A stretch of 46,168 nt of DNA from an uncultured Zetaproteobacteria bacterium (GTDB taxonomy: Bacteria > Pseudomonadota > Zetaproteobacteria > Mariprofundales > Mariprofundaceae): positions 1-46,168 of the forward strand of contig CAZJRL010000001.1 of the NCBI GenBank assembly GCA_964548425.1, given 5' to 3'. The position numbers were made by a program, and so were the translations under genes. Below the pieces are notes generated by a model, which was not told the origin of the DNA, ran no database searches, and saw only the letters and a list, made by a program, of their open reading frames with translations. Positions within the stretch are counted from its first letter, which is position 1. Every line of letters starts with the position of its first letter. Of this stretch, positions 1 through 40,682 are shown one piece after another.

Positions 1-99
1 AAAGTGTGCACCGGCTTCAATGGCTGCTTCGATACCGATCATGGTATTTTCCGGAAAGCGGGTCGCATAACCCCGATGAGCGATCAGTTTAACCTGCAT
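1..99 (-). CDS. glycerophosphodiester phosphodiesterase (GDPD) family protein, N-terminal fragment that continues past the window edge
   Basis: My reverse translation of 99..1 gives MQVKLIAHRGYATRFPENTMIGIEAAIEAGAHF. HRG-x5-PENT and A-x3-GA form the N-terminal GDPD signature. The ATG is at 99..97. Only 33 codons lie inside the window, so the ORF track does not list it. Confidence 0.55.
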   Translation of the reverse strand, partial: MQVKLIAHRGYATRFPENTMIGIEAAIEAGAHF

Positions 100-129
100 G
101 GATTTCAGTATAGAACAAAACCTTCTGTC

Positions 130-2617: not shown

Positions 2618-3530
2618 GGGGTCAGGTCTGCTATTGTACTACACCCCGCAGGGTTCTAACCTTACCGCATGGCCAGGCCGTTACGCATTGAATACGAAGG
2701 CGCACTATACCACTTGACTTCCCGTGGAGATCGTCGGGAAGCTATTTTTGAGGACGATCAAGACCGTCGCCGATTTCTGAGAATTTTGGGTGATGTTATT
2801 GGTCAAATGGGATGGAAATGCCATTGCTATTGTCTGATGGATAATCACTACCATTTGGTGATTCAAACTCCGGAAGCAAACCTCTCCAAAGGCATGCGCC
2901 AGCTTAACGGGGTGTTTACTCAGGACAGCAATCGCCGCCATGATCGTTGTGGCCATTTGTTTCAGGGGAGATTCAAATCTATTGTCGTAGACTCGGATGC
3001 CTACCTTCTGGAGCTATCCCGTTACGTGGTGTTAAACCCGGTGCGGGCAGGTATGGTAGCCGACCCGGCTGATTGGTACTGGAGTAGCTATCAGGCTACT
3101 GTGGGGAGAGAGTCCTCTCCTGCCTGGCTGGAAACCAGGGAATTGTTGTCGTATTTCTCTAGCCATATGGGGATAGCGCAACACAAGTACGCGGCATTTG
3201 TTGCAGAGGAAATGGACAAGAAGAGTATATGGTTGGAAATCAACAGGCAGATATATCTGGGCGATGACGAGTTTGTTGCCAAGGCGCAGAGCAGGGTGAA
3301 AGGCATGGAAAATGATGAAAATATTCCCCGTGTACAGCGCCTGCATCCGCCCGGATCGTTGGCGGAGATTGCCGCACAGTATGAGGGGCGTAATGAGGCA
3401 ATCGTGGCTTGTTATGCAACAGGGGAATATAGCTATTCTGAGATCGCCGAGTATTTTGACATCTATTTTACTACCGTGGGGCGTATCGTGCGCAATGCGC
3501 GAAAAATGGTACAATAGCAGACCTGACCCC
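2618..3530 (+). mobile_element. RAYT/IS200-like unit bounded by a perfect 22-bp inverted repeat
   Basis: ggggtcaggtctgctattgtac at 2618..2639 is the exact reverse complement of gtacaatagcagacctgacccc at 3509..3530. The right arm overlaps the last codons and the stop of the transposase ORF. Confidence 0.75.
2669..3517 (+). CDS. HUH Y1 transposase of the IS200/REP-associated (RAYT-like) type with a C-terminal HTH region
   Basis: YHLTSRG is present. The HUH motif is in DNHYHLVIQT. HLFQGRFKS is present. The catalytic Tyr motif is in SRYVVLNPVRAGMV, followed by WYWSSY. The C-terminus, YSYSEIAEYFDIYFTTVGRIVRNARK, looks like an HTH. Confidence 0.8.
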   Translation: MARPLRIEYEGALYHLTSRGDRREAIFEDDQDRRRFLRILGDVIGQMGWKCHCYCLMDNHYHLVIQTPEANLSKGMRQLNGVFTQDSNRRHDRCGHLFQGRFKSIVVDSDAYLLELSRYVVLNPVRAGMVADPADWYWSSYQATVGRESSPAWLETRELLSYFSSHMGIAQHKYAAFVAEEMDKKSIWLEINRQIYLGDDEFVAKAQSRVKGMENDENIPRVQRLHPPGSLAEIAAQYEGRNEAIVACYATGEYSYSEIAEYFDIYFTTVGRIVRNARKMVQ

Positions 3531-4276: not shown

Positions 4277-4282
4277 GCCTTT

Positions 4283-4444
4283 TTACCGCAGGGGTCGCGA
4301 AGGACGCAGAGGAAAAGCAGGAAATTCTTGTAACAAATACCATCTTTATAGCCAACATATCGGACGATACTCGAAGGGTAATAGGGTCGCTTTTTCAATA
4401 AATCAATTTTTCCCTCTGCGTACTCCGCGTCCCCTGCGGTGAAA
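4283..4444. mobile_element. MITE-like palindromic element, copy 1 (between the convergent lipoprotein and trpC ends)
   Basis: The arms are ttaccgcaggggtcgcgaaggacgcagaggaaaag (4283..4317) and tccctctgcgtactccgcgtcccctgcggtgaaa (4411..4444), in inverted orientation. The core is about 80 percent identical to the copy at 6490, in reverse orientation. Confidence 0.75.
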
Positions 4445-4451
4445 TGGATGT

Positions 4452-5240
4452 TTATTCGGTCAGAAGTGAGGTAAGAGCCTTGCCCGGGTCAGGCTGGCGC
4501 ATCAGTGATTCACCAATTAGAAAACCATATACACCCGCTTGGTTCATATAACGGATATCTTCCGGCGTATGGATACCGGATTCAGTGATGATGGTTTTCC
4601 CATACGGAATAGCCGGCAATAGTTCAATTGTTGTGTCCAGTGATGTGGAGAAATCGTGCAGATTACGGTTGTTTATACCGACGAGCTGCGTATCCAGCTT
4701 CAGCGCCCGCTCCAGTTCCTCCCTGTTATGTACTTCTGGCAGGATGGAAAGTCCCATCTCTCTGGCGGTTGCAGTCAGATCGGCGGCCAGTACATCATCC
4801 ACCATGGCCAGAATGACGAGAATCGCGTCGGCACCCAGTGCCCGCGTTTCGATAATCTGATAGGGATCGAGCATAAAATCCTTGCGTAGAATGGGAAGAT
4901 CAACCTTCTTCCGGATATCCGACAGATAGGCATCATTTCCCTGGAAATATTGTTCATCGGTAAGAATGGACAGGCAGCTTGCCCCTCCGGCCACATAGGA
5001 TTTAGCGATGGCCGCCGGATCGAAATCTTCGCGGATCACGCCCCTGGACGGGCTGGCTTTCTTGATTTCGGCAATGACGGTATTTTTATGATCTGAAACA
5101 CGAGCCGTCAAGGCCCCGGTAAAGTCGCACGGCGCATACTTATGTGCGCGTACCAGCATTTCAGCTTCTGTTACACGAGACTTTTTCTGTTTGACCCATT
5201 TGCGCTTGTATGCAGCGATTTCCTCAAGAATCGAACTCAT
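4452..5240 (-). CDS. trpC: indole-3-glycerol-phosphate synthase
   Basis: IAEIKKASPSRGVIREDFDP, EVHNREELERAL and GINNRNL motifs are present, in a trp gene context. Confidence 0.95.
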   Translation of the reverse strand: MSSILEEIAAYKRKWVKQKKSRVTEAEMLVRAHKYAPCDFTGALTARVSDHKNTVIAEIKKASPSRGVIREDFDPAAIAKSYVAGGASCLSILTDEQYFQGNDAYLSDIRKKVDLPILRKDFMLDPYQIIETRALGADAILVILAMVDDVLAADLTATAREMGLSILPEVHNREELERALKLDTQLVGINNRNLHDFSTSLDTTIELLPAIPYGKTIITESGIHTPEDIRYMNQAGVYGFLIGESLMRQPDPGKALTSLLTE

Positions 5241-5245
5241 GATTT

Positions 5246-5437
5246 TTCACCGCGGGGGACGCGGAGGACGCAGAGGAAATTCATAAATGATTGACCATCC
5301 TTTTAATACCGTCACGGAGGTGGACAGTGTTGAAGTTGATGAGAAGCCCCAATGCGGAATGAACCTCCATAGCGGCATGAATGATTTCACCGCTGGTCTT
5401 GTTTAATCTCTGCGTCCTTTGCGTCCCCTGCGGTGAA
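5246..5437. mobile_element. MITE-like palindromic element, copy 2 (fills the trpD-trpC gap)
   Basis: The arms are ttcaccgcgggggacgcggaggacgcagaggaa (5246..5278) and tctctgcgtcctttgcgtcccctgcggtgaa (5407..5437). The core differs from that of copies 1 and 3. Confidence 0.75.
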
Positions 5438-5441
5438 TCCC

Positions 5442-6467
5442 TCATGTTCTTTGGGTAAAGGCGACGAGACTGGCAAGCACCTCCGCCGCCTTCCCGCTAT
5501 CAATGGTTTTGGCGGCAAGGCGTAACCCTGTACTGATACCATCGGACGCACCTGCCACCCATAACGCCGCAGCGGTATTGAGCAGCACGATATCTCGCGC
5601 TGGCCCCTGCTTTCCACCCAGAATATCGCGGATGATAGCGGCGTTGGCATCGGCATCACCGCCAGCCAGTTTATCTGAATTGGCATACGGCATGCCGAAG
5701 GCTGCCGGGTCAATCTCAAATTCACGCAATGGAGCATGTTGCTCAACCCAAATAGCATCGGTGAGGGTGGTCGTGGTAATTTCATCCAGTCCGTCACGGC
5801 CATGGACTACCAGTGCGCGCTGGATACCCAGTTGCTGTAGGGCGCTCGCGACCAGTTTGAGTTTGTCTTTTGCATATACGCCGAGCACCTGATAGCCGGC
5901 ATTGGCCGGATTGGTCAATGGCCCCAGAAGATTAAAGATGCTGCGTACGCCTAATTCGCGGCGTGGTGCAGCTGCATGCTTCATGGCTGGATGATGTGCT
6001 GGCGCAAAGAGGAAGCCGATACCTGTTGTGTCAATGCATTCCGCCACCTGACCCGGTGCAATATCAAGTTTTACGCCCAGGGCTTCCAGCACATCTGCGC
6101 TGCCTGATCTGGAGGAAATGGCCCGATTGCCGTGTTTGGCGACCGGCACCCCTGCTGCTGCTACTACAAGCGCAACGGTCGTGGAAATATTAAAAGTGGA
6201 GGCGCCATCGCCACCCGTACCGCAGGTGTCGAGCAGGCCGGTGCTGCATGGATGAATGCCGGTAGCGGCAGATCGCATGGCACGCGCCGCTCCGGCGATG
6301 ATATCCGGCGTTTCACCCCGGATGGAGAGCCCCATCAACAGAGCTCCGATCTGGGCTGGGGTTCCGTTTCCCTGCATAATATTGCCGAAAACAGATTCCG
6401 CATCCTCCGCACCAAGTTCACCCCCGGCCTGAATCACGCGCAGGGCATCCTGAATATTCATGGTCAT
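5442..6467 (-). CDS. trpD: anthranilate phosphoribosyltransferase
   Basis: GTGGDG and KHGNRAISSRSGSADVLEALG motifs are present. The longest ORF (to 6533) reads through a repeat arm (..ASSASPAV..). I trimmed the start to ATG 6467, which is preceded by GGGAGA. Confidence 0.9.
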   Translation of the reverse strand: MTMNIQDALRVIQAGGELGAEDAESVFGNIMQGNGTPAQIGALLMGLSIRGETPDIIAGAARAMRSAATGIHPCSTGLLDTCGTGGDGASTFNISTTVALVVAAAGVPVAKHGNRAISSRSGSADVLEALGVKLDIAPGQVAECIDTTGIGFLFAPAHHPAMKHAAAPRRELGVRSIFNLLGPLTNPANAGYQVLGVYAKDKLKLVASALQQLGIQRALVVHGRDGLDEITTTTLTDAIWVEQHAPLREFEIDPAAFGMPYANSDKLAGGDADANAAIIRDILGGKQGPARDIVLLNTAAALWVAGASDGISTGLRLAAKTIDSGKAAEVLASLVAFTQRT

Positions 6468-6489
6468 GTCATCTCCCTGTGACAAAAGA

Positions 6490-6652
6490 TCCACCGCAGG
6501 GGACGCGGAGGACGCAGGGTAAAAGATTGGCATAATTAAAAGGCTGCCCTGTCACCCTTCGAATATCGTCTGATATGTTAGCTATAGGGGGACATTTGTC
6601 ACAAGAGCTTTCCTGTTTTTCCTCTGCGTACTCTGCGTCCACTGCGGTGAAA
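6490..6652. mobile_element. MITE-like palindromic element, copy 3 (fills the trpG-trpD gap)
   Basis: The arms are tccaccgcaggggacgcggaggacgcagggtaaaag (6490..6525) and ttcctctgcgtactctgcgtccactgcggtgaa (6619..6652). Confidence 0.75.
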
Positions 6653-6655
6653 TGT

Positions 6656-7222
6656 TTATAGACTGACATTAAGAAAATTTTGCAATAATTGATGGCCATG
6701 TTCGGTAAGAATTGATTCGGGATGGAATTGCACACCGAATGTCGGGTGTTCCACATGCATAAGCCCCATCAGTTCGTTCTCATCCGTCCATGCGGTTCTT
6801 GTCAGTATATCCGGTAACGGTTCCTCAACAATCAGCGAGTGGTAACGGGTTGCGGTGAACGGAGAAGGGATACCTTCCAGAATGCCACGACCATCATGTA
6901 TCATCGGGCTGGTCTTGCCATGCATCAGGCGCGGAGCACGCACGACGCTACCGCCAAAGGCTGCCGCAATGGATTGATGGCCGAGGCAAACGCCAAGGAT
7001 GGGGATGCGGCCTGAGAATCGTTTGATGACATCCACGGAAATGCCCGCTTCGCGGGGTGTGCACGGACCCGGCGAAATCACGATATGGGAGGGTGCCATG
7101 GTACCAATGTCTGCCAGTGAAATTTTGTCATTGCGTCGCACTTCCGGTGTTTCGCCCAGTTCTCCAAGATACTGCACCAGATTGAAGGTAAAGGAATCGT
7201 AATTGTCGATCACCAGAATCAT
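6656..7222 (-). CDS. trpG: anthranilate synthase component II (glutamine amidotransferase; TrpG/PabA type)
   Basis: [23 protein letters not shown] is present, with the catalytic Cys in GVCLGHQ. The gene overlaps trpE by 4 nt. Confidence 0.9.
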
Positions 7223-11006: not shown

Positions 11007-11180
11007 AAAAATCCCCGTTGAAAGCCAATGAATTTGCTATTGAATGGATGTGGGACACTACTCAAGGGCGTGTAGTCACGCAATAAAGATATGGTGTAAC
11101 AACTCAGCACCCCTATGCAAAGCTCCGCAACTGCTCAGATTGCCTGGATTTCCTCTGTCCCGCCTTCGCGGGATTGCATG

Positions 11181-11205
11181 TCCTCTGTGTCCTCTGTGGT
11201 GAGAA
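11181..11205 (-). repeat. variant repeat arm (tcctctgtgtcctctgtggtgagaa)
   Basis: It is the reverse complement of ttctcaccacagaggacacagagga. A further tcctctgt copy lies at 11151. Confidence 0.5.
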
Positions 11206-12326: not shown

Positions 12327-13814
12327 ATGACAGCCCCGGACTTTTTACGAGGATATCCTGATTTGCGTACATTTATTGCTGATCTTGAAAAACGGGGGCT
12401 ACTCAAGCGCATTTACACCGAGGTTAATCCCAGGTTCGAAGTGACAGCGATTGCTGACAAGGTATTACGCGCAGGCGGTCCGGCGTTGTTATTTGAGCAT
12501 GTAACAGGCAGTAATATGCCGCTTCTGGCCAATCTGTTCGGTACGGCGGAACGTATTGCGCTGGGTATGGGGCGCGAATCAGTGGAGGAATTACGGCAGG
12601 TTGGCGAGTTGCTGGCTTATCTGAAAGAGCCGGATCCTCCCAAAGGTCTGAAGGATGTATGGGGCAAGCTTCCTGTATTGAAAAAAGTACTGCATATGGG
12701 GCCCAAAGTAGTCAAAAAAGCGCCGTGGCAGGAAGTGGTTTTAACCGGAGAGGATGTGGACCTGGGCCGATTGCCCGTTCAGACATGCTGGCCTGAAGAC
12801 GCCGGGCCACTCATCACCTGGGGTCTGGTCGTAACCCGTGGTCCGAACAAGGATCGGCAGAATCTGGGTATTTACCGCCAGCAGGTGATTGGAAAGAACA
12901 AGGTCATCATGCGCTGGCTGAAGCATCGTGGTGGAGCGCAGGATCACCGGGAAGCGAGAAAATCCGGGGCCAGTGCGTTTCCATGCGCCGTGGTGATCGG
13001 GGCCGATCCGGCCACCATTCTGGCGGCGGTGGCGCCGATTCCTGATACATTATCCGAATATCAGTTTGCGGGATTGTTGCGTGGTGAAAAAACGGTGCTG
13101 GTTGATTGCCAAAGCGTTCCGCTCCAGGTTCCGGCATCCGCCGAAATCGTGCTGGAGGGCCATGTATCGCTGGATGAATATGCCGATGAGGGGCCGTTCG
13201 GCGATCATACGGGATATTACAATGAAGTGGAGCGTTTTCCTGTGTTTACTGTCGAGCGCATGAGTATGCGCCGGGATGCCATCTATCATTCCACCTATAC
13301 CGGTAAGCCACCGGATGAACCCGCCATGCTGGGGCTGGCATTCAATGAGGTGTTTGTGCCGATCTTGCGCAAACAGTTTCCCGAGATTACCGATTTTTAT
13401 CTGCCGATGGAGGGATGCTCCTATCGCGTGGCCATCGTTTCCATGAAAAAAGCCTACGCCGGTCATGCAAAACGGGTGATGTTCGGTATCTGGTCTTATC
13501 TCAGGCAGTTCATGTACACCAAATTTATTATTGTGGTGGATGACGACATTGACTGCCGTTCGTGGGCCGAGGTGATCTGGGCCATTTCCACCCGCTGTGA
13601 CCCGGCGCGGGATTTTACCATGGTGGAGCATACGCCTATTGATTATCTTGATTTTGCTTCACCCGTTGCAGGTCTGGGTTCCAAGGTGGGCATTGATGCG
13701 ACCCATAAGCTGGATGGAGAGACCACCCGAACGTGGGGCCGGAAAATTGAGCTGCCGGAAGATGTAGAGGCGCGGGTCGCATCCGTTCTGGAGGAACTTG
13801 GCTGTACGGAATAA
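12327..13814 (+). CDS. ubiD: UbiD-family decarboxylase (4-hydroxy-3-polyprenylbenzoate decarboxylase type)
   Basis: The N-terminus [17 protein letters not shown] and a size of about 495 aa are typical of UbiD. I prefer the ATG at 12327 to the TTG at 12315. Confidence 0.85.
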
Positions 13815-21135: not shown

Positions 21136-21282
21136 TTCACCGCAGAGTACGCAAAGTTACGCAAAGGAACCCCAAAATGGGCAAATTCCGGAGGCTGAAT
21201 ATACATTCAACCGTAGGTGTAAGAGCCCTGGACTTTATATCGCGTCTTTACTCTGCGTAACTTTGCGTACTTTGCGGTGAAA
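21136..21282. mobile_element. MITE-like palindromic element, copy 4 (downstream of smc)
   Basis: The arms are ttcaccgcagagtacgcaaagttacgcaaagga (21136..21168) and ttactctgcgtaactttgcgtactttgcggtgaa (21248..21282). Confidence 0.75.
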
Positions 21283-33477: not shown

Positions 33478-34537
33478 CCTGCTTTACCCATTGGCTGACC
33501 AGTATGCTTTCTTCAACCTGTTTCAGTACATCACCTTCCGCACCGTTTATGCGCTGATCACCGCATTATTGTTGAGCTGGATTCTGGGCCCCGCCTTTAT
33601 TCGCAGGCTTAAATTGCATCAGGCAACAGGGCAACCGATTCGTAGTGATGGTCCCGCCACGCATCTGAGTAAGGCGGGTACGCCAACCATGGGGGGTATG
33701 CTGATCCTGTTTGTCCTGGCTGTATCTACGCTGCTGTGGGCTGATTTAACCAGTGCTTTCATATGGCTGGCCCTGTTTCTCACCGTGAGTTATGGCGGTA
33801 TTGGCTGGTATGACGATTATCTGAAGGTGGTTCGGAGTGATCCCAAAGGTTTGCCGGGGCGATGGAAGCTGGTGTTACAGGTGGTATTCGGAACCATCGC
33901 AGCGGTGGGGTTGCTGCAACTGACACAGCCTGTTGTGGACATCCCCTTCTTCAAGGAACAATGGAATATGGGTTTGTGGTATGTCCCCTTCGTGGTGCTG
34001 GTACTGGTGGGTGCATCCAATGCCGTCAACCTGACGGACGGACTGGATGGACTGGCGGTGGCACCGACATTCATGGTGGCAACAGCACTGGCTGTCGTGG
34101 TGTACCTGTCCGGGCACGCCAGATTTTCTGAGTATTTACTTATACCGCATGTGGTTGGCGCAGGTGAATTAACCGTATTTTGCGGGGCTATGGTGGGCGC
34201 CTGTCTGGGATTTCTCTGGTTTAATACATATCCGGCGCAGGTGTTTATGGGCGATGTCGGCGCACTGGCACTGGGCGGTGCACTCGGCTTTGTGGCCAGT
34301 GCCGTACATCAGCAATTGCTGCTGGCGATTGCCGGTGGTCTGTTTGTGCTGGAGGCGGTGAGCGTCATGGTACAGGTTGTTTCATTCAAACTAACGGGAA
34401 AGCGTGTATTCCGTATGGCGCCGATTCATCACCACTTTGAACTCAAGGGGTGGGCGGAGCCCAAGGTGATTGTCCGGTTCTGGATTATTTCCCTGATTCT
34501 GGCGCTGATTGCGCTTTCCACGCTGAAGATGCGATGA
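33467..34537 (+). CDS. mraY: phospho-N-acetylmuramoyl-pentapeptide transferase
   Basis: [26 protein letters not shown] and PIHHHFE are present. I prefer ATG 33467 to the ORF-track start at 33443. Confidence 0.93.
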
Positions 34538-35889
34538 GTAACAGAGATCACCCGAACACTGCTGTCATCGGCATGGGCCGGACAGGATGCTCCGTGGTGC
34601 GTTTCCTGGAGCAACTGGGCATCGTTTGCGACGCTTTTGATGAAAAGCTCAGGACATTGCCGGATGATATTCATGCCACGTTGCATACGGGTGTAATCCG
34701 TCCCGCGCATTTGCAGGGATATTCACGGGTGATCGTCAGTCCGGGTGTGGACTGGCGGCATCCGGCACTGGTACATGTGCGGGATCGGGGCGTGCAAATG
34801 ACGGGCGATATCGGGCTGTTCAATGAATATTTTTCCGGTGCACTGATCGCTGTAACAGGGACCAACGGAAAAAGTACCGTCGTGCATCTGTTGGGGTTGA
34901 TGCTGGAAGTGCTGCATGGCGGCGCTGTGGTTGGCGGTAATATTGGTGTGCCCATGCTGGATATGCTGCATGGTGGAGAAAGCCCGGCACGGGCGGTGCT
35001 TGAGTTGTCCAGTTTCCAGCTGGAGCGTTGCCGGAGTATTCATCCGAAGTGGGCGGTATTGCTGAATGTTCAGCCGGACCATGCGGATATGCATGATGAT
35101 TTCCACAGTTATGAAGCCGCTAAATTAAAACTGTTCGCGCAACAGGGTGAAGGCGATACCGCCATGTTGCCACTGGATGAGCACTGGAATGATCTGGCCG
35201 CAAGTCTGGCCGGGCGTGGCGTACAGGTGCGGCGTTTTGGTGTGATGGAACAGGAGCCACGGGCGGATGCCGGATTGTTGCTCACCGGGGACGGGGGGAA
35301 GCTGTTCTGGAAGCAGGAGGATGCATACCGGGAAATTCCTCTTGAATGTTTGCGTGTACGTGGCGTGCATCAGCAAATAAATCTGGCTGTTGCTGCTCAG
35401 GTAGCGGCGGATTTTGGTGTTTCAGCCAGCGTTATTACTGAATCCCTGACCGTATTTCGTGGCCTTAACCACCGTTTGCAGTATATCGGCCATCGTCTGG
35501 GCAAGGCGTGGTATGATGATTCCAAAGCAACCAATCCGGATGCTGCCGGGGCGGCACTCGCATCTTTTGAGCACGTCATATGGATTTGCGGCGGCCTGAC
35601 CAAAGGGCTGGATCTGACGCCACTGGCTGAAACGGTGAAAGAACATGCGGTTTCCGCCTACATTATTGGCAAGCAGACGAAGCCATACAGGGAGATGCTC
35701 AAAAAGGCAGGCGTACCCTATAAGGTGGCGCGTGACATACGGAAAGCCGTGGCACTGGCCGCAGGAAATACATTGTCACTGCCTGTATTGCTGGCACCGG
35801 CTGCGGCCAGTCAGGATCAGTTCAGGGATTATGCAGAGCGTGGGGAGAAATTTGCCGAGGCTGTTGCCGGGTTGGAGAAGGCGGCATGA
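34534..35889 (+). CDS. murD: UDP-N-acetylmuramoylalanine--D-glutamate ligase
   Basis: VIGMGRTG and VTGTNGKST are present. ATG 34534 overlaps the mraY stop (ATGA). The ORF-track start at 34450 lies inside mraY. Confidence 0.92.
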
Positions 35890-37037
35890 GCATCACACCT
35901 GAATCATCGCGTATGAAGCCATTGGCACCTGCTGACCCCGTGATGGCTGCAGGCGTGCTGCTGCTGGCTGCGGCAAGCATGGTGATGGTCGCCAGCGCCA
36001 GTATGAGCATCTCCGAAGTACGTTATGGTGATGCTTACCGGATTATCAGTCACTGGCTGATCTACATGCCACTGGGCCTTGTACTCATGTGGTGGATGTC
36101 ACGCATTGAGGTGGACTGGTGGAGGGCGGCTATTTTGCCCCTGTTGGGGTTTGCTCTGTTATTGATGGTGATGGTTCTGGTGCCGGGTATCGGCACGGAC
36201 ATCAATGGTGCAAGGCGCTGGTTTTCCCTGTTTGGCCTGACGTTGCAGCCGGTGGAATTACTCAAGCCCGTCCTGATCATTTATATGGCTTATTACATGG
36301 CGTGTTTTCCTGAACGGCTGAAACATTTTTCGACCGGACTGGCACCGATGCTGGTGATTCTGCTTGTCTCCGTACTGTTATTGCTGTTGCAGCCGGATTT
36401 CGGAAATGCAGCATTACTGGTGGCGCTTTGCCTGTGCATGTGGTTTGCGGGAGGTGTGCCGATGCGGCATATCATGGTTTTATTTGCCGTGATTGTTCCT
36501 GTCGGTGTGGTGATTCTGCTGGCCGAACCCTACCGTATCCGGCGTTTGCTGAGTTTCATGGATCCGTGGGCTGATCCGCTGGGAAGTGGCTACCAGTTGG
36601 TACAATCCATGATTGCCTTTGGTGCGGGTGGATTGCATGGCGCAGGTCTTGGCCAGAGTGTGCAGAAACTCTTCTATCTGCCTGAGCCGTTCACCGATTT
36701 TATTAGCTCGGTTCTGGCTGAAGAATTCGGTCTTGCCGGAACACTTTCCCTGATTGCCATATTTGGCATTGTTCTGTGGCGCGGCATGCGGCTGGCTCAC
36801 CATGTCAAAGATGCGTATCAGCGGATGCTGGTGCTGGGATCGGTGACGATTCTGGCCGTTACGTTCCTGATTAATATGGGTGCGGCCATGGGTATTATGC
36901 CGACCAAGGGCATGCCGATGCCATTGATGTCCTATGGTGGCAGCGCGTTGTTTGGCTCCTGCATATTGCTGGGGCTGATTTTCTCCGTGCAGCGCCATCT
37001 CCCGGAAAATATGCGAAAGAAAGGGGTCAGGTCTTGA
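35886..37037 (+). CDS. ftsW: SEDS-family peptidoglycan polymerase / cell division protein FtsW
   Basis: The protein is polytopic and contains PTKGMPMPLMSYGGSA. There is an ATGA overlap with murD. The last 6 codons and the stop lie in a REP arm. Confidence 0.92.
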   Translation: MSITPESSRMKPLAPADPVMAAGVLLLAAASMVMVASASMSISEVRYGDAYRIISHWLIYMPLGLVLMWWMSRIEVDWWRAAILPLLGFALLLMVMVLVPGIGTDINGARRWFSLFGLTLQPVELLKPVLIIYMAYYMACFPERLKHFSTGLAPMLVILLVSVLLLLLQPDFGNAALLVALCLCMWFAGGVPMRHIMVLFAVIVPVGVVILLAEPYRIRRLLSFMDPWADPLGSGYQLVQSMIAFGAGGLHGAGLGQSVQKLFYLPEPFTDFISSVLAEEFGLAGTLSLIAIFGIVLWRGMRLAHHVKDAYQRMLVLGSVTILAVTFLINMGAAMGIMPTKGMPMPLMSYGGSALFGSCILLGLIFSVQRHLPENMRKKGVRS

Positions 37038-37103
37038 TTCGCGCACGGATCAGCAGGAAATGGAACAGGTGATGCGCGAATCAAGACCTGACCCCTTTCT
37101 TTC
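37015..37103. mobile_element. REPIN-like perfect palindrome (31-bp arms, 27-nt loop) sharing the RAYT-flank core GGGGTCAGGTCT
   Basis: gaaagaaaggggtcaggtcttgattcgcgca (37015..37045) is the exact reverse complement of 37073..37103. Confidence 0.85.
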
Positions 37104-37121
37104 TTTATTCGGAACGAAAAA

Positions 37122-38246
37122 GTGAAACTGTCCCCTTTTTCCACATCAGGACCTGACCCCTTTCTTTCTTTATGTATTGCCGGGGGCGGTACGGGCGGGC
37201 ATGTGTTTCCGGCACTGGCACTGGCCGATATCGTCCGGAGGCACTGGCCGCATGTACAGGTGTCATTTATTGGCGCCGAGCGTGGACTGGAAGCGCGCCT
37301 GCTCCCCGAACGTGGAGAGGCGGCGCTTTTTCTGACCATGCACAGCGTGCAGGGTGCGGGGTTCATGCAGCAACTGCGTGTGCTTGTATGGGAACTGCCA
37401 CGGGCTGTTTTACATATCTGGAAATACTGGCGGGCCGTGCGTCCGCAGTTGGTGGTGGGTGTGGGCGGTTATGCCAGCGTGGCTGGCGTGGTGGCGGCAA
37501 TTCTGCGCCGTATTCCCGTCGTGCTGTATGAACAGAATGCCGTGCCTGGGCTGGTGAATCGTAAGCTGGCCCGCTTCTGCCAGGGTATTCTTCTGGGTTT
37601 TGCGGAGGCCGCGGATACATTGCCACGGGGCAAATGCAGGCATACAGGGAATCTCGTTCCACAGGCGATACAGGAAACACACTGGCAACCCCATACGCCG
37701 CCGGGGCTGATTGTGCTGGGCGGTTCACAAGGTGCGCAATTCCTGAATGAAACAGTACCTGCAGCCTGCCGCATACTGAAGCGCGCAGGACACCGTTTTA
37801 CAGTGATACATGTGGCGGGAGATGGCTCCGGCAGGAAGAAAATGCTTGCCAGTGCCTACCATGACGCCGGGATTGATGCCGAGTTACTTGGCTTTTGCCG
37901 TGATATGGCTGGCCTGTACGCCAAAGGTGATCTGATGATTGCCCGCGCAGGCGCCATGAGTGTCACCGAGGCTGCTGCGGTGGGAATGCCGGCCATCTTC
38001 GTGCCCCTGCCACACGCCGCAAATGCGCACCAGTATTACAATGCCCGTACCCTGGCGTCGCGTAGCGCAGCCGTCATTATTGATCAGGAAACAGCCACCG
38101 CAGAAGTGCTGGCAAGTGAGATCGGGAAACTCCTGTTTAATGTCAGACAATTAACGTCCATGAGTGAAGCCGCTGCGCAATCCGTTCCCGAACAGGGCGA
38201 AGAAAAAATGCTGGATATGCTGGGAATATGGTTAGGGAAATGCTGA
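37122..38246 (+). CDS. murG: undecaprenyldiphospho-muramoylpentapeptide beta-N-acetylglucosaminyltransferase
   Basis: The G-loop is IAGGGTGGHVFPALALA, with the typical C-terminal half. GTG 37122 is the only canonical in-frame start after the stop at 37089. Codons 10-17 (GPDPFLSL) therefore come from the REP copy. Confidence 0.88.
   Translation: MKLSPFSTSGPDPFLSLCIAGGGTGGHVFPALALADIVRRHWPHVQVSFIGAERGLEARLLPERGEAALFLTMHSVQGAGFMQQLRVLVWELPRAVLHIWKYWRAVRPQLVVGVGGYASVAGVVAAILRRIPVVLYEQNAVPGLVNRKLARFCQGILLGFAEAADTLPRGKCRHTGNLVPQAIQETHWQPHTPPGLIVLGGSQGAQFLNETVPAACRILKRAGHRFTVIHVAGDGSGRKKMLASAYHDAGIDAELLGFCRDMAGLYAKGDLMIARAGAMSVTEAAAVGMPAIFVPLPHAANAHQYYNARTLASRSAAVIIDQETATAEVLASEIGKLLFNVRQLTSMSEAAAQSVPEQGEEKMLDMLGIWLGKC
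37150..37173 (+). repeat. third REP copy (direct repeat of the right arm)
   Basis: gacctgacccctttctttctttat at 37150..37173 is identical to 37085..37108. Confidence 0.85.
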
Positions 38247-38413
38247 TGAATTCCGGGGTAGCTGGATTGCTGGCTGCAATAGCGCAGATCAAGGCGCTGA
38301 TTGCCGCCAATAGCAGGGCTATTGGCAAAATAAGCAACGCGGATATGGGCCATTTCAGGCGCAATGCAGCCCGCCATGAACTGATCAGCATTTCCCTGAA
38401 GGCCCGAACATGA
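38246..38413 (+). CDS. hypothetical 55-aa protein filling the murG-murC gap
   Basis: MNSGVAGLLAAIAQIKALIAANSRAIGKISNADMGHFRRNAARHELISISLKART. Its ATG shares one nt with the murG TGA (tgATG), and its TGA overlaps the murC ATG (ATGA). I recognise no homology. Confidence 0.3.
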   Translation: MNSGVAGLLAAIAQIKALIAANSRAIGKISNADMGHFRRNAARHELISISLKART

Positions 38414-39792
38414 AACGCTGGGTAAAACACATACACTTCACCGGCATCGGCGGCATCGGCATGAGTGGTATTGCCGAACTGCTGCATAATCAGGGTTTTT
38501 CCGTACAGGGCTCGGATGCTGCCGACAGCGCCAATGTCAGACGGCTGCGTTCACTCGGCATGCATGTGTTTATCGGGCATCAGGCAGGTCAGTTGGGGCA
38601 GGCCCAGGTGGTGGTCGTATCTTCCGCGATTTCCGCTGATAATCCTGAATGGGTGGAGGCACGCGAGCGTGGCATTCCGGTGATCCCCCGTGCTGAAATG
38701 CTGGCGGAACTGATGCGCATGAAGCAGGGCATTGCCGTGGCCGGAAGTCATGGCAAGACCACCATTACATCGCTGATTGCGCATGGCATGGAAACTGCGG
38801 GACTGGATCCGACGTATGTCATCGGCGGCCGCCTGATCGCGGGCGGCGGGAATGCCCGGCTTGGCGACAGCCCGTGGCTGGTGGCCGAGGCGGATGAAAG
38901 TGACGGCTCGTTCCTGCTTCTTGCGCCAACCATTGCCGTCGTGAGCAATATTGACCCTGAACATCTTGATCATTATGGCGATTTTGAACACCTGATGGAT
39001 GCCTTCCGGCAATTCACTGCAAGTGTTCCTTTCTACGGGCGTGCGGTATTACACCATGAACATCCGAATGTCGCCCTGCTGCGGGATACCTTGCACAAGC
39101 CCGTGATTACCTATGGCCGCAGCCTTCAGGCAGACGTTCACCTGCTGGGAGCCCGTCAGGAACAGACAGGGCAAACGATCAGCATTGGCCTGGCGACAGG
39201 CGAAACACCGGGTGACTTCTTTCTTCCCATGCCGGGTATACACAATGCCGAAAATGCACTGGCGGCGATTGCCGTATTGCTGGAGCTGGATGTGGATGTG
39301 GAAACGATCCGCCGCTCACTGCAATCCTTTGAAGGTATTCAGAGGCGCTTCCAGTGTACACATCTGGGGCAAGGCATGTTGGTGGACGATTATGCGCATC
39401 ATCCTCGCGAGATTACGGTGACACTGGCAACAGCGCGCACATGCTGGCCCGAAGAGCCGTTACTGGTGCTGTTTCAGCCCCATCGGTATACCCGTAGCCG
39501 TGATTTAATGGATGAATTTCTGGGGGCATTTGATGAAGCCGCCGAGGTTGTGCTGTTGCCGATTTATGCCGCCAGTGAGCCGAAAATTGAAGGTATCAGC
39601 CACGAAGTTATGGCACAGGGCATGAAAAAACGGGGACATCGCAACGTGCGTTGCTGTACGGGTCTCGACGAGGCGCGGAATATTGCCGGCGAAGCGCTGG
39701 CATCGGGCAGGACAGTGATGTTGCTGGGGGCGGGTTCCATCGGTGCGCTGGGCACGGAATTGCGCGCAGAGGATTGGGAGAACGTAACATGA
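38410..39792 (+). CDS. murC: UDP-N-acetylmuramate--L-alanine ligase
   Basis: HIHFTGIGGIGMSGIAELL and VAGSHGKTT are present. An in-frame stop at 38377 excludes a longer N-terminus. Confidence 0.93.
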   Translation: MKRWVKHIHFTGIGGIGMSGIAELLHNQGFSVQGSDAADSANVRRLRSLGMHVFIGHQAGQLGQAQVVVVSSAISADNPEWVEARERGIPVIPRAEMLAELMRMKQGIAVAGSHGKTTITSLIAHGMETAGLDPTYVIGGRLIAGGGNARLGDSPWLVAEADESDGSFLLLAPTIAVVSNIDPEHLDHYGDFEHLMDAFRQFTASVPFYGRAVLHHEHPNVALLRDTLHKPVITYGRSLQADVHLLGARQEQTGQTISIGLATGETPGDFFLPMPGIHNAENALAAIAVLLELDVDVETIRRSLQSFEGIQRRFQCTHLGQGMLVDDYAHHPREITVTLATARTCWPEEPLLVLFQPHRYTRSRDLMDEFLGAFDEAAEVVLLPIYAASEPKIEGISHEVMAQGMKKRGHRNVRCCTGLDEARNIAGEALASGRTVMLLGAGSIGALGTELRAEDWENVT

Positions 39793-40682
39793 CGGCCTGG
39801 CACGTACAGTTGAAGGAATGGGGTGTTCTGTCTGAAAACGAACCGATGTCACGCCACACCACGCTGGGCGTGGGGGGAGAAGCGCGCTGGTATTTCAGAC
39901 CGGGAAACAGGGAAGGCGTGATGAATGCAGTGAAGCAAATTCCTGCCGATGTTCCGCTGTTGCCATTGGGACGTGGCAGTAATCTGCTGGTTCCCGATGC
40001 AGGGTTTGCCGGGCTGGTGATGGATTTGAGCCGTCTTTCCGACATTTCCATCCAGGAACGGCGGATTACGGCTGAAGCGGGAGCACGCATGAACAGATTG
40101 TCCCGGTGCAGCGCCGAAGCAGGTCTTGCCGGTCTGGAGTTTATGGCGACGGTTCCCGGTGACGTAGGTGGTGGTATTGTCATGAATGCAGGGGCTTTTG
40201 GCCAGCAGGTGTCCGATACGCTTCGATCTATCGAAATCGTGGAAATAAATGGCAAAAGTGAAATATTGGAGGTTGCAGCTTTGCATATGGCCTATCGTCA
40301 TACCTCTCTTCCGAAAGGTGCGCTGGTGTTATCGGCAAGTTTTGAACTTCAACCGGATGAACCCGAAGCGATTAAAGAACGTATGCGTGATATGCGCAGA
40401 AAACGGAGCTGCACCCAGCCACTGGAGAAGCCCAATTGCGGATCCGTATTCAAAAATCCCCCGCATGACCATGCTGCGCGCCTGATCGAAGCTGCGGGGC
40501 TGAAGGGTTTCCGCATCGGTGGGGCGTGCATATCGGGGAAACATGCCAATTTCATCGTCAATGAGGGGCAGGCCAGAAGCAGCGATGTCTGTGCGCTTAT
40601 CCGGCACGCTCAGCAAACGGTTGAACAGCGTTTTGGTATCAGGCTGGAACCGGAAGTACATGTGCCGGGGGAGCAACTGTGA
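39789..40682 (+). CDS. murB: UDP-N-acetylenolpyruvoylglucosamine reductase
   Basis: RHTTLGVGGEA (FAD-binding domain) and CGSVFKNP are present. ATG 39789 overlaps the murC stop (ATGA). Confidence 0.9.
   Translation: MTAWHVQLKEWGVLSENEPMSRHTTLGVGGEARWYFRPGNREGVMNAVKQIPADVPLLPLGRGSNLLVPDAGFAGLVMDLSRLSDISIQERRITAEAGARMNRLSRCSAEAGLAGLEFMATVPGDVGGGIVMNAGAFGQQVSDTLRSIEIVEINGKSEILEVAALHMAYRHTSLPKGALVLSASFELQPDEPEAIKERMRDMRRKRSCTQPLEKPNCGSVFKNPPHDHAARLIEAAGLKGFRIGGACISGKHANFIVNEGQARSSDVCALIRHAQQTVEQRFGIRLEPEVHVPGEQL

Follow-up and report, generated by a model that had tools for sequence, protein, structure and literature searches.

A REPIN with a solo REP unit at the ftsW–murG junction of a Zetaproteobacterium

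This work concerns a palindromic element that sits between ftsW and murG in the division and cell wall (dcw) cluster of an uncultured, iron-oxidising Zetaproteobacterium. The DNA analysed, referred to below as the window, is a whole contig of 46,168 nt. The ftsW–murG feature is a REPIN, that is, two inverted repetitive extragenic palindromic (REP) units that make up an 89-nt hairpin, accompanied by one solo REP unit. Very probably it belongs to a repeat family linked to the REP-associated tyrosine transposase (RAYT) encoded on the same contig, has replaced the ATGA overlap that ancestrally joined ftsW and murG, and is tolerated at this site.

A repeat search of the window bore out the perfect inverted repeat reported in a preliminary description of this DNA: the two 31-nt arms, 37015-37045 and 37073-37103, are 100% complementary and 27 nt apart. 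Not a single arm match appeared in 100 dinucleotide-shuffled windows, even with 3 mismatches allowed. The same description had placed a third copy of the arm at 37150-37173; the copy is indeed there, but its span has to be extended to 37145-37173, a stretch of 29 nt which is identical to 37080-37108 at 28 of the 29 positions and is in direct orientation with the right arm. The 11-mer GGGGTCAGGTC is found five times in the window, three times at ftsW–murG and twice around the Y1 transposase gene; for a 14-nt search pattern with up to 2 mismatches, shuffled sequences gave an average of 0.17 matches. Two inverted REP units with a short spacer and the capacity to form a hairpin are what is expected of a REPIN. 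REPINs are also expected to be extragenic, and here the window departs from the pattern, since the left arm forms the end of ftsW and the third copy encodes MurG residues. This placement is a feature of the position, not of the structure of the element.

Two other ideas about the cluster of repeats were tried and rejected. The third copy did not come from a tandem duplication, because the 29-nt REP part is repeated and the 36-nt spacer is not. The spacer segment GTGAAACTGTCCCCTTTTTCC is not a second repeat family either: the window has a single occurrence, and outside the window it is essentially confined to the orthologous junction of locus L003, the other match, in L135, having 4 mismatches. 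The palindromes of this family reach 7-10 nt past the conserved REP core (25 nt in L071), and these outer parts are symmetric within each copy and differ between copies.

The presumed mobilising enzyme is encoded 34 kb upstream of the ftsW–murG element. Its open reading frame (ORF) matches Pfam Y1_Tnp (E = 6.5e-12) and the NCBIfam equivalog NF047646 REP_Tyr_transpos (83.6 bits, with a cutoff of 80), and the gene belongs to the REP-associated clade of Y1 HUH transposases, as in REPIN/RAYT systems generally. The gene is surrounded by a perfect 22-nt inverted repeat with the core GGGGTCAGGTCT, the same core as in the dcw arms. To follow the repeat beyond the window, a degenerate REP pattern of 23 nt, GGGGTCAGGTCTTGAWTYGYGCR, was scanned over one genome per GTDB species, 596 Gb altogether. 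Less than one chance match is expected in a sequence of this size, and 101 stretches were found, in Burkholderiales, Alteromonadales, Desulfobulbia, Acidobacteriota, Actinomycetota, Nitrospirae and Zetaproteobacteria; the named carriers include Thalassotalea mangrovi, Rheinheimera, one alphaproteobacterial metagenome-assembled genome (MAG) and eight Zetaproteobacterial contigs. The window's own genome is not among the GTDB representatives matched by the pattern. Two Burkholderiales MAGs carry 28-33 exact matches at 21 loci each, and many of the matches form inverted pairs 24-70 nt apart, which are REPINs. Homologues of the window's RAYT, found by tblastn and 40-55% identical to it, lie close to a REP match at about nine REP loci (for example L030, L054, L062 and L045), six of them near full length. 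The family with the core GGGGTCAGGTCTTGA(A/T)T(C/T)G(C/T)GCA is the partner repeat of this RAYT of about 280 residues. Since a RAYT-linked REP family is spread across phyla and the dcw palindrome is an inverted doublet of its units, the palindrome is read as a REPIN. The REPIN-type identity proposed at the outset, and the tie to the flanks of the RAYT gene, are thus supported by the common core, by the profile matches of the RAYT and by homologous RAYTs near REPs elsewhere.

A separate observation concerns how little the repeat varies. The 23-nt core GGGGTCAGGTCTTGAATCGTGCA is near-invariant in loci L009-L109, which come from Actinomycetota, Acidobacteriota, Nitrospirae, Desulfobulbia and Alpha-, Beta-, Gamma- and Zetaproteobacteria, and it accompanies the RAYT of about 280 residues. 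Such uniformity would suggest either horizontal spread or a very strong constraint on recognition by the RAYT. No mention of the core sequence in the context of bacterial REPs was found in the searchable literature.

At the ftsW–murG junction the element is part of both genes. The ftsW reading frame ends with ENMRKKGVRS and a TGA at 37035-37037, inside the left arm, and the murG reading frame begins with GTG at 37122. Upstream of this codon the frame is first closed in the right arm, by the TGA at 37089-37091, and no in-frame ATG, GTG or TTG lies between the two. Immediately ahead of LCIAGGGTGGH, the third copy encodes SGPDPFLSL, so that reading from GTG 37122 across the solo REP unit gives MurG an N-terminal extension of 17 residues. 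All three points had been anticipated in the preliminary description, namely that ftsW ends in the left arm, that GTG 37122 is the only canonical in-frame start of murG, and that the residues ahead of the MurG G-loop come from the third copy. Residues L17, C18 and I19 of MurG are invariant across 25 homologues, and the start of murG must therefore be upstream of 37170; most probably it is GTG 37122. A GGA is located 8 nt ahead of this codon, and the GTG is in an unpaired stretch of the minimum free energy (MFE) fold.

The loop of the window's REPIN reads ATGG, and its ATG at 37060 opens a 21-codon ORF, possibly translated, which stops at TGA 37123-37125. Extra DNA of 65 nt, consisting of one REP unit and the 36-nt spacer, puts this ATG out of the murG frame, because the distance from the right arm to the third copy is not a multiple of three. 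The start of the short ORF looks like the previous start of murG, displaced by the extra segment; if the two 29-nt direct repeats recombined, the 65 nt would be lost and the gene start would again resemble that of locus L004. The coordinates of these and the other features are collected in Table 1.

Table 1. Features of the window and of related loci (positions refer to the window unless a locus is named)
Feature	Position	Strand	Remarks
RAYT left flank GGGGTCAGGTCTGCTATTGTAC	2618..2639	+	12-nt core common with the dcw arms
RAYT gene, 282 aa	2669..3517	+	HUH motif NHYHLV, Tyr motif SRYVVLNP; presumed mobilising enzyme
RAYT right flank	3509..3530	-	perfect inverted copy of 2618-2639
ftsW	35886..37037	+	Pfam FTSW_RODA_SPOVE; 3' end within the element
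Left REP arm of REPIN	37015..37045	+	last FtsW codons R K K G V R S and TGA 37035-37037
REPIN loop, 27 nt	37046..37072	+	contains ATG 37060; homologous to related REPIN loops
21-codon ORF MEQVMRESRPDPFLSLFGTKK	37060..37125	+	opened by the loop ATG; TGA overlaps the murG GTG (GTGA)
Right REP arm	37073..37103	+	perfect complement of left arm; TGA 37089-37091 closes the murG frame upstream
41-nt spacer	37104..37144	+	weak Shine-Dalgarno (GGA) and predicted murG start GTG 37122
murG	37122..38246	+	Pfam Glyco_transf_28 and Glyco_tran_28_C; 5' end within the element cluster
Solo third REP copy	37145..37173	+	28/29, direct with right arm; translated as MurG S G P D P F L S L
Outer symmetric extensions	37015-37022 / 37096-37103; L004 2683-2691 / 2765-2773; L004 5271-5281 / 5352-5362; L071 25-49 / 94-118		
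murC–murB REPINs	L004 5271-5362; L006 2534-2603; L008 ~12470-12550; L111 ~4944		
Second repeat family TTTCACCGCGGGGGACGCGGAGGACGCAGAGGAAA	127-162, 763-801, 4280-4315, 4408-4446, 5244-5279, 5402-5440, 6488-6523, 6616-6654, 11174-11202, 21136-21169, 21248-21281		

The history of the junction can be read from its relatives, for which junction DNA was taken from eight assemblies and 33 metagenome loci and excised between conserved anchors. The MurG matches at 55-66% identity are named Mariprofundaceae or Zetaproteobacteria. Thirty more distant Zetaproteobacteria (L113-L142), whose MurG is 54-71% identical to that of the window over the matched segment, have no element; their ftsW and murG share an ATGA, and the N-terminus of MurG is short. 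The same holds for the close relatives L001/L002 (MurG 84% identical) and L112 (79%). At the empty sites the short MurG start follows the form MNR..N.LC and the FtsW tails are unlike that of the window: in L001, FtsW ends with ENMRKIGHARMPGHVHRKAAT and MurG starts with MNRAANLLC, and in L112 the corresponding sequences are ENMRKNTCRKSVT and MSRNVLC. A comparison with close relatives had been named as the test that could refute the claim that the element encodes the C-terminus and stop of FtsW and part of the N-terminus of MurG. The outcome favours the claim, as relatives lacking the palindrome differ at both termini and have the overlap instead.

The occupied sites vary in how well the element is preserved. 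L004 has one REPIN with perfect 33-nt arms at ftsW–murG, the arms of L007 are 84% complementary, and those of L005/L110 are 73-77% complementary, in loci that also have a larger loop and an additional left arm that has decayed. In L006 the contig begins in the loop of its ftsW–murG copy; L008/L111 have a single REP unit that is read by both ftsW and murG in a 22-nt overlap; and L003, with a MurG 79% identical to that of the window, has a variant palindrome. Orthologous copies range from perfect in L004 down to 73-88% complementary in L005, L006 and L007, a range that makes the earlier suggestion of “recent insertion or active maintenance” a reasonable one. In the window and in L004, L005 and L008, the TGA of the REP core (GTCTTGA) closes ftsW and leaves GVRS as the last FtsW residues; in L007 the protein ends with GVMP. 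L004, L005, L006 and L007 all have murG in the frame of their loop ATG (for example MKQMVRKSRPDPISSLLCIAGGG), and this ATG is likely to be the murG start in the relatives with a simple REPIN. The spacer segment of the window is common to L003 only, and homology with the L003 junction extends over the 41-nt spacer plus the third copy. The GTG predicted to start murG is common to the window and L003, where the same GTGA serves as ftsW stop and murG start. The window therefore joins an L004-type REPIN to the right half of an L003-type structure.

In a neighbour-joining tree of MurG, occupied and empty lineages are interleaved. P0006, which has a REPIN, is the sister of the empty P0010 with 98.5% bootstrap support, and the window groups with P0003 and P0005 (75%). 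Precise excision does not account for the empty sites, as they retain both the ancestral ATGA and the homologous MNR..N.LC start, and the pattern implies several gains of the element or a recombinational spread of the occupied allele. It is worth asking whether the palindrome or its third copy could have been produced by mis-assembly of repeats in a metagenome bin. Assemblies do break at these elements, as seen in L006, which starts within the ftsW–murG loop, and in L102, where tandem REPINs at 58-187 adjoin a run of N. In the window, however, the element lies inside the contig rather than at an edge, and the genes on either side are uninterrupted and keep their reading frames. Hairpins homologous to it occupy this junction in assemblies made independently from other samples, and the unusual spacer with the third copy is also found in L003. 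An artefact is, on these grounds, extremely improbable.

The same element is found at other gene junctions. The loop of the Zetaproteobacterial copies, CG(R)ATCAG..ATGAAAC.G, is conserved between different genomic sites and therefore belongs to the element. Copies at murC–murB are carried by L004 (perfect 33-nt arms), L006 and L008/L111, and in them the ATGA of the loop provides the murC stop and the murB start; the murC–murB junction of the window (around 39790, ACATGAC) is empty. Further copies are located at a ubiJ-like/ubiB junction in L066 and 13 nt past the stop of a suhB-like gene in L068. In L058 (7261-7330), a Zetaproteobacterial MAG, a REPIN lies in frame within one long ORF between YHS and HMBD metal-binding domains; this copy is an intragenic insertion of the kind known from Rickettsia palindromic elements (RPEs). 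At every readable site the loop is in the sense orientation. The left arm offers a TGA in one frame, the loop a conserved ATGA, and the right arm is open in the frame of the ATG, so that the element could enter ATGA overlaps or linkers without killing either gene. From the ftsW–murG, murC–murB and ubiJ–ubiB sites one might go further and propose that the Zetaproteobacterial subfamily is a self-contained “gene-junction cassette”, with a preference, in insertion or in retention, for ATGA overlaps; it would then be a mobile element adapted to life in essential operons, where it rewrites protein termini again and again. We regard this as a speculative proposal and an unlikely one.

The preliminary description had also supposed that the stem, followed by a T-rich tract, would be a strong obstacle to transcription and replication. 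This part could not be upheld. The RNA of 36995-37200 (206 nt) does fold with the complete stem (MFE -88.6 kcal/mol, z = -6.3), and such a large free energy, together with a GC-rich upper stem followed by UUUCUUUCUUUAUU, is what would recommend a strong intrinsic terminator or replication barrier in mid-operon, one requiring a murG-proximal promoter. Yet the palindrome was not flagged in a consensus terminator scan of 34000-40000, whose definition of a terminator is exceeded by a 31-bp stem with a 27-nt loop, and the U-rich run has interruptions and is for the most part base-paired once the whole stem forms. In the DNA, this T-rich tract belongs to the stem and at the same time encodes hydrophobic residues ahead of the first MurG strand, which constrains it as coding sequence; the murC–murB copies have no T tract. 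Hairpins of the same size persist at ftsW–murG in five other lineages and at murC–murB in three, and a short spaced palindrome is of ordinary REPIN size, with dozens of copies in some genomes. A consensus scan of 34000-40000 also gave no promoter-like site downstream of the hairpin, and read-through is therefore the simplest assumption. Taken together, a terminator or barrier is very unlikely. An Rfam scan of 36800-38500 returned only miRNA-precursor hairpins, at 15-32 bits against gathering scores of 50-99.

A milder role deserves more thought, namely that the hairpin has been co-opted and is under selection as an attenuator, as a site of mRNA stabilisation or processing, or as a brake on translation at the ftsW stop, setting the FtsW:MurG ratio and uncoupling the two genes. 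The ftsW–murG junction is occupied in at least six lineages and murC–murB in three; a comparison of the window with L004 shows much stronger conservation in the arms than in the loop or the flanks; the hairpin is very stable, as its z score indicates; and the ftsW stop is inside the stem, an arrangement that is said to lower upstream expression in E. coli. The Zetaproteobacterial genomes have few copies, and yet two of them are in the dcw cluster: few copies per genome with two in one operon could hint at selective retention rather than neutrality. All the same, the close relatives L001 and L112 and 30 of the 30 distant ones do without the hairpin, the orthologous copies have decayed as described above, the terminator scan was negative, the murC–murB copies lack T tracts, and re-insertion or gene conversion from the population of REPINs would explain the conservation of the arms equally well. 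We consider co-option somewhat unlikely, and take the insertion to be essentially a tolerated selfish element, given that neither the tail of FtsW nor the N-terminus of MurG is under constraint.

Several observations do weigh against this reading of a tolerated, RAYT-linked REPIN. Within the 46 kb available from this genome, copies of the repeat are found at two loci, and the Zetaproteobacterial MAGs carry few, with 1-5 exact matches each; in related Zetaproteobacterial MAGs the copies are on at least two contigs. The flanks of the RAYT gene and the dcw arms agree over 12 nt only. L003 and L005 are sisters, yet each has a different part in common with the window. Finally, it is from the DNA sequence that the position of the murG start, a translated short ORF and any influence of the hairpin are inferred.

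With these points in mind, the tolerated REPIN could have come about and be accommodated as follows. Judging from other Y1/HUH RAYTs, the RAYT would mobilise the element in the form of single-stranded DNA hairpins, and a copy would have entered the ancestral ATGA overlap of ftsW and murG and replaced it. Ribosomes completing ftsW would melt the hairpin, and murG would be translated from GTG 37122, either directly by way of the weak Shine-Dalgarno sequence or by termination-reinitiation after the 21-codon ORF. The RNA hairpin may modestly alter mRNA stability or read-through, as the REPs of E. coli do.

There are other repeats in the window besides this family. The spacer between murG and murC (38247-38409) is 163 nt long in the window; most relatives have an ATGA overlap at that place. 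An inverted repeat with 37-nt arms, 78% complementary, occupies 38234-38270 and 38361-38397, and its left arm supplies the end of MurG (GKC before the stop). The region (38228-38413) holds an ORF of 61 residues whose stop overlaps the murC ATG. A homologous ORF in L005 (11182-11340) is 50% identical over 48 residues, and the insert is absent from L001, L003, L004, L007 and L008. A second, unrelated family of repeats of about 35 nt (last row of Table 1) is arranged as inverted pairs, with 80-130 nt between partners, in one intergenic region after another around the ORFs 4452-5240, 5442-6533 and 6656-7222. It looks like another family resembling REPINs or miniature inverted-repeat transposable elements.

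Three features described here are absent from the preliminary description: the loop ATG with its 21-codon ORF ending in GTGA, the repeated occupation of the ftsW–murG junction, and the distribution of this REP family over many phyla. The case has some general lessons. Repeats known as “extragenic”, REPs and REPINs, can take the place of a stop/start overlap between two essential genes of the cell envelope and contribute residues to both products, and this rewriting is recurrent at the same junctions within one bacterial clade. For annotators, it offers an explanation for the odd MurG N-termini, FtsW tails and contig breaks in these genomes. A REP core that is nearly identical from Actinomycetota to Proteobacteria and linked to one family of RAYTs is also convenient for testing RAYT-REP recognition and horizontal spread. 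The mobile hairpin at ftsW–murG is nonetheless a clear and recurrent case of a known type of element, not a new kind of system, and it is best understood by comparison with its better-known counterparts.

In E. coli, REPs and bacterial interspersed mosaic elements (BIMEs) located inside operons stabilise mRNA, as between malE and malF, attenuate transcription, and reduce translation when near a stop codon. In work by Liang, Rudd and Deutscher from 2015, a REP within 15 nt of the stop codon is said to lower the expression of the upstream gene, and BIMEs reportedly attenuate transcription according to Espeli et al. in 2001. The window has the same arrangement of a stable hairpin between two genes of an operon, the stop codon of the first gene falling at or within the stem. 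Unlike the window's element, the REP of E. coli sits past the stop codon and encodes no protein ends.

The closest counterparts are the REPIN/RAYT systems, such as the REPINs of Pseudomonas fluorescens SBW25 and the REP/BIME elements of E. coli with TnpA-REP (PMC3116915, PMC3337134, PMC5581495). In common with these, the window has an inverted pair of REPs with a short spacer and a hairpin, and a Y1/HUH RAYT gene with the repeat core in inverted orientation on either side; several genomes other than the window's own hold multiple copies of the repeat. Clusters of more than two units are also seen in BIMEs. There are differences as well. The window copy is not extragenic: two essential genes obtain from it a stop codon, the region of a start and some 16 codons; the RAYT, with its 280 or so residues, has a long C-terminal extension; and the Zetaproteobacterial subfamily has a conserved loop with an ATGA. 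While classic REP families are lineage-specific, the 23-nt core found here is nearly identical across phyla.

Mobile palindromes that are tolerated in coding sequence as in-frame additions have a precedent in the RPEs and in the intragenic enterobacterial repetitive intergenic consensus (ERIC) elements (reviewed in PMC10969869), and the copy inside the metal-binding protein of L058 is comparable to them. RPEs, however, are about 150 bp long, have no known RAYT partner, and insert inside genes, whereas the element of the window replaces the stop/start junction between two.

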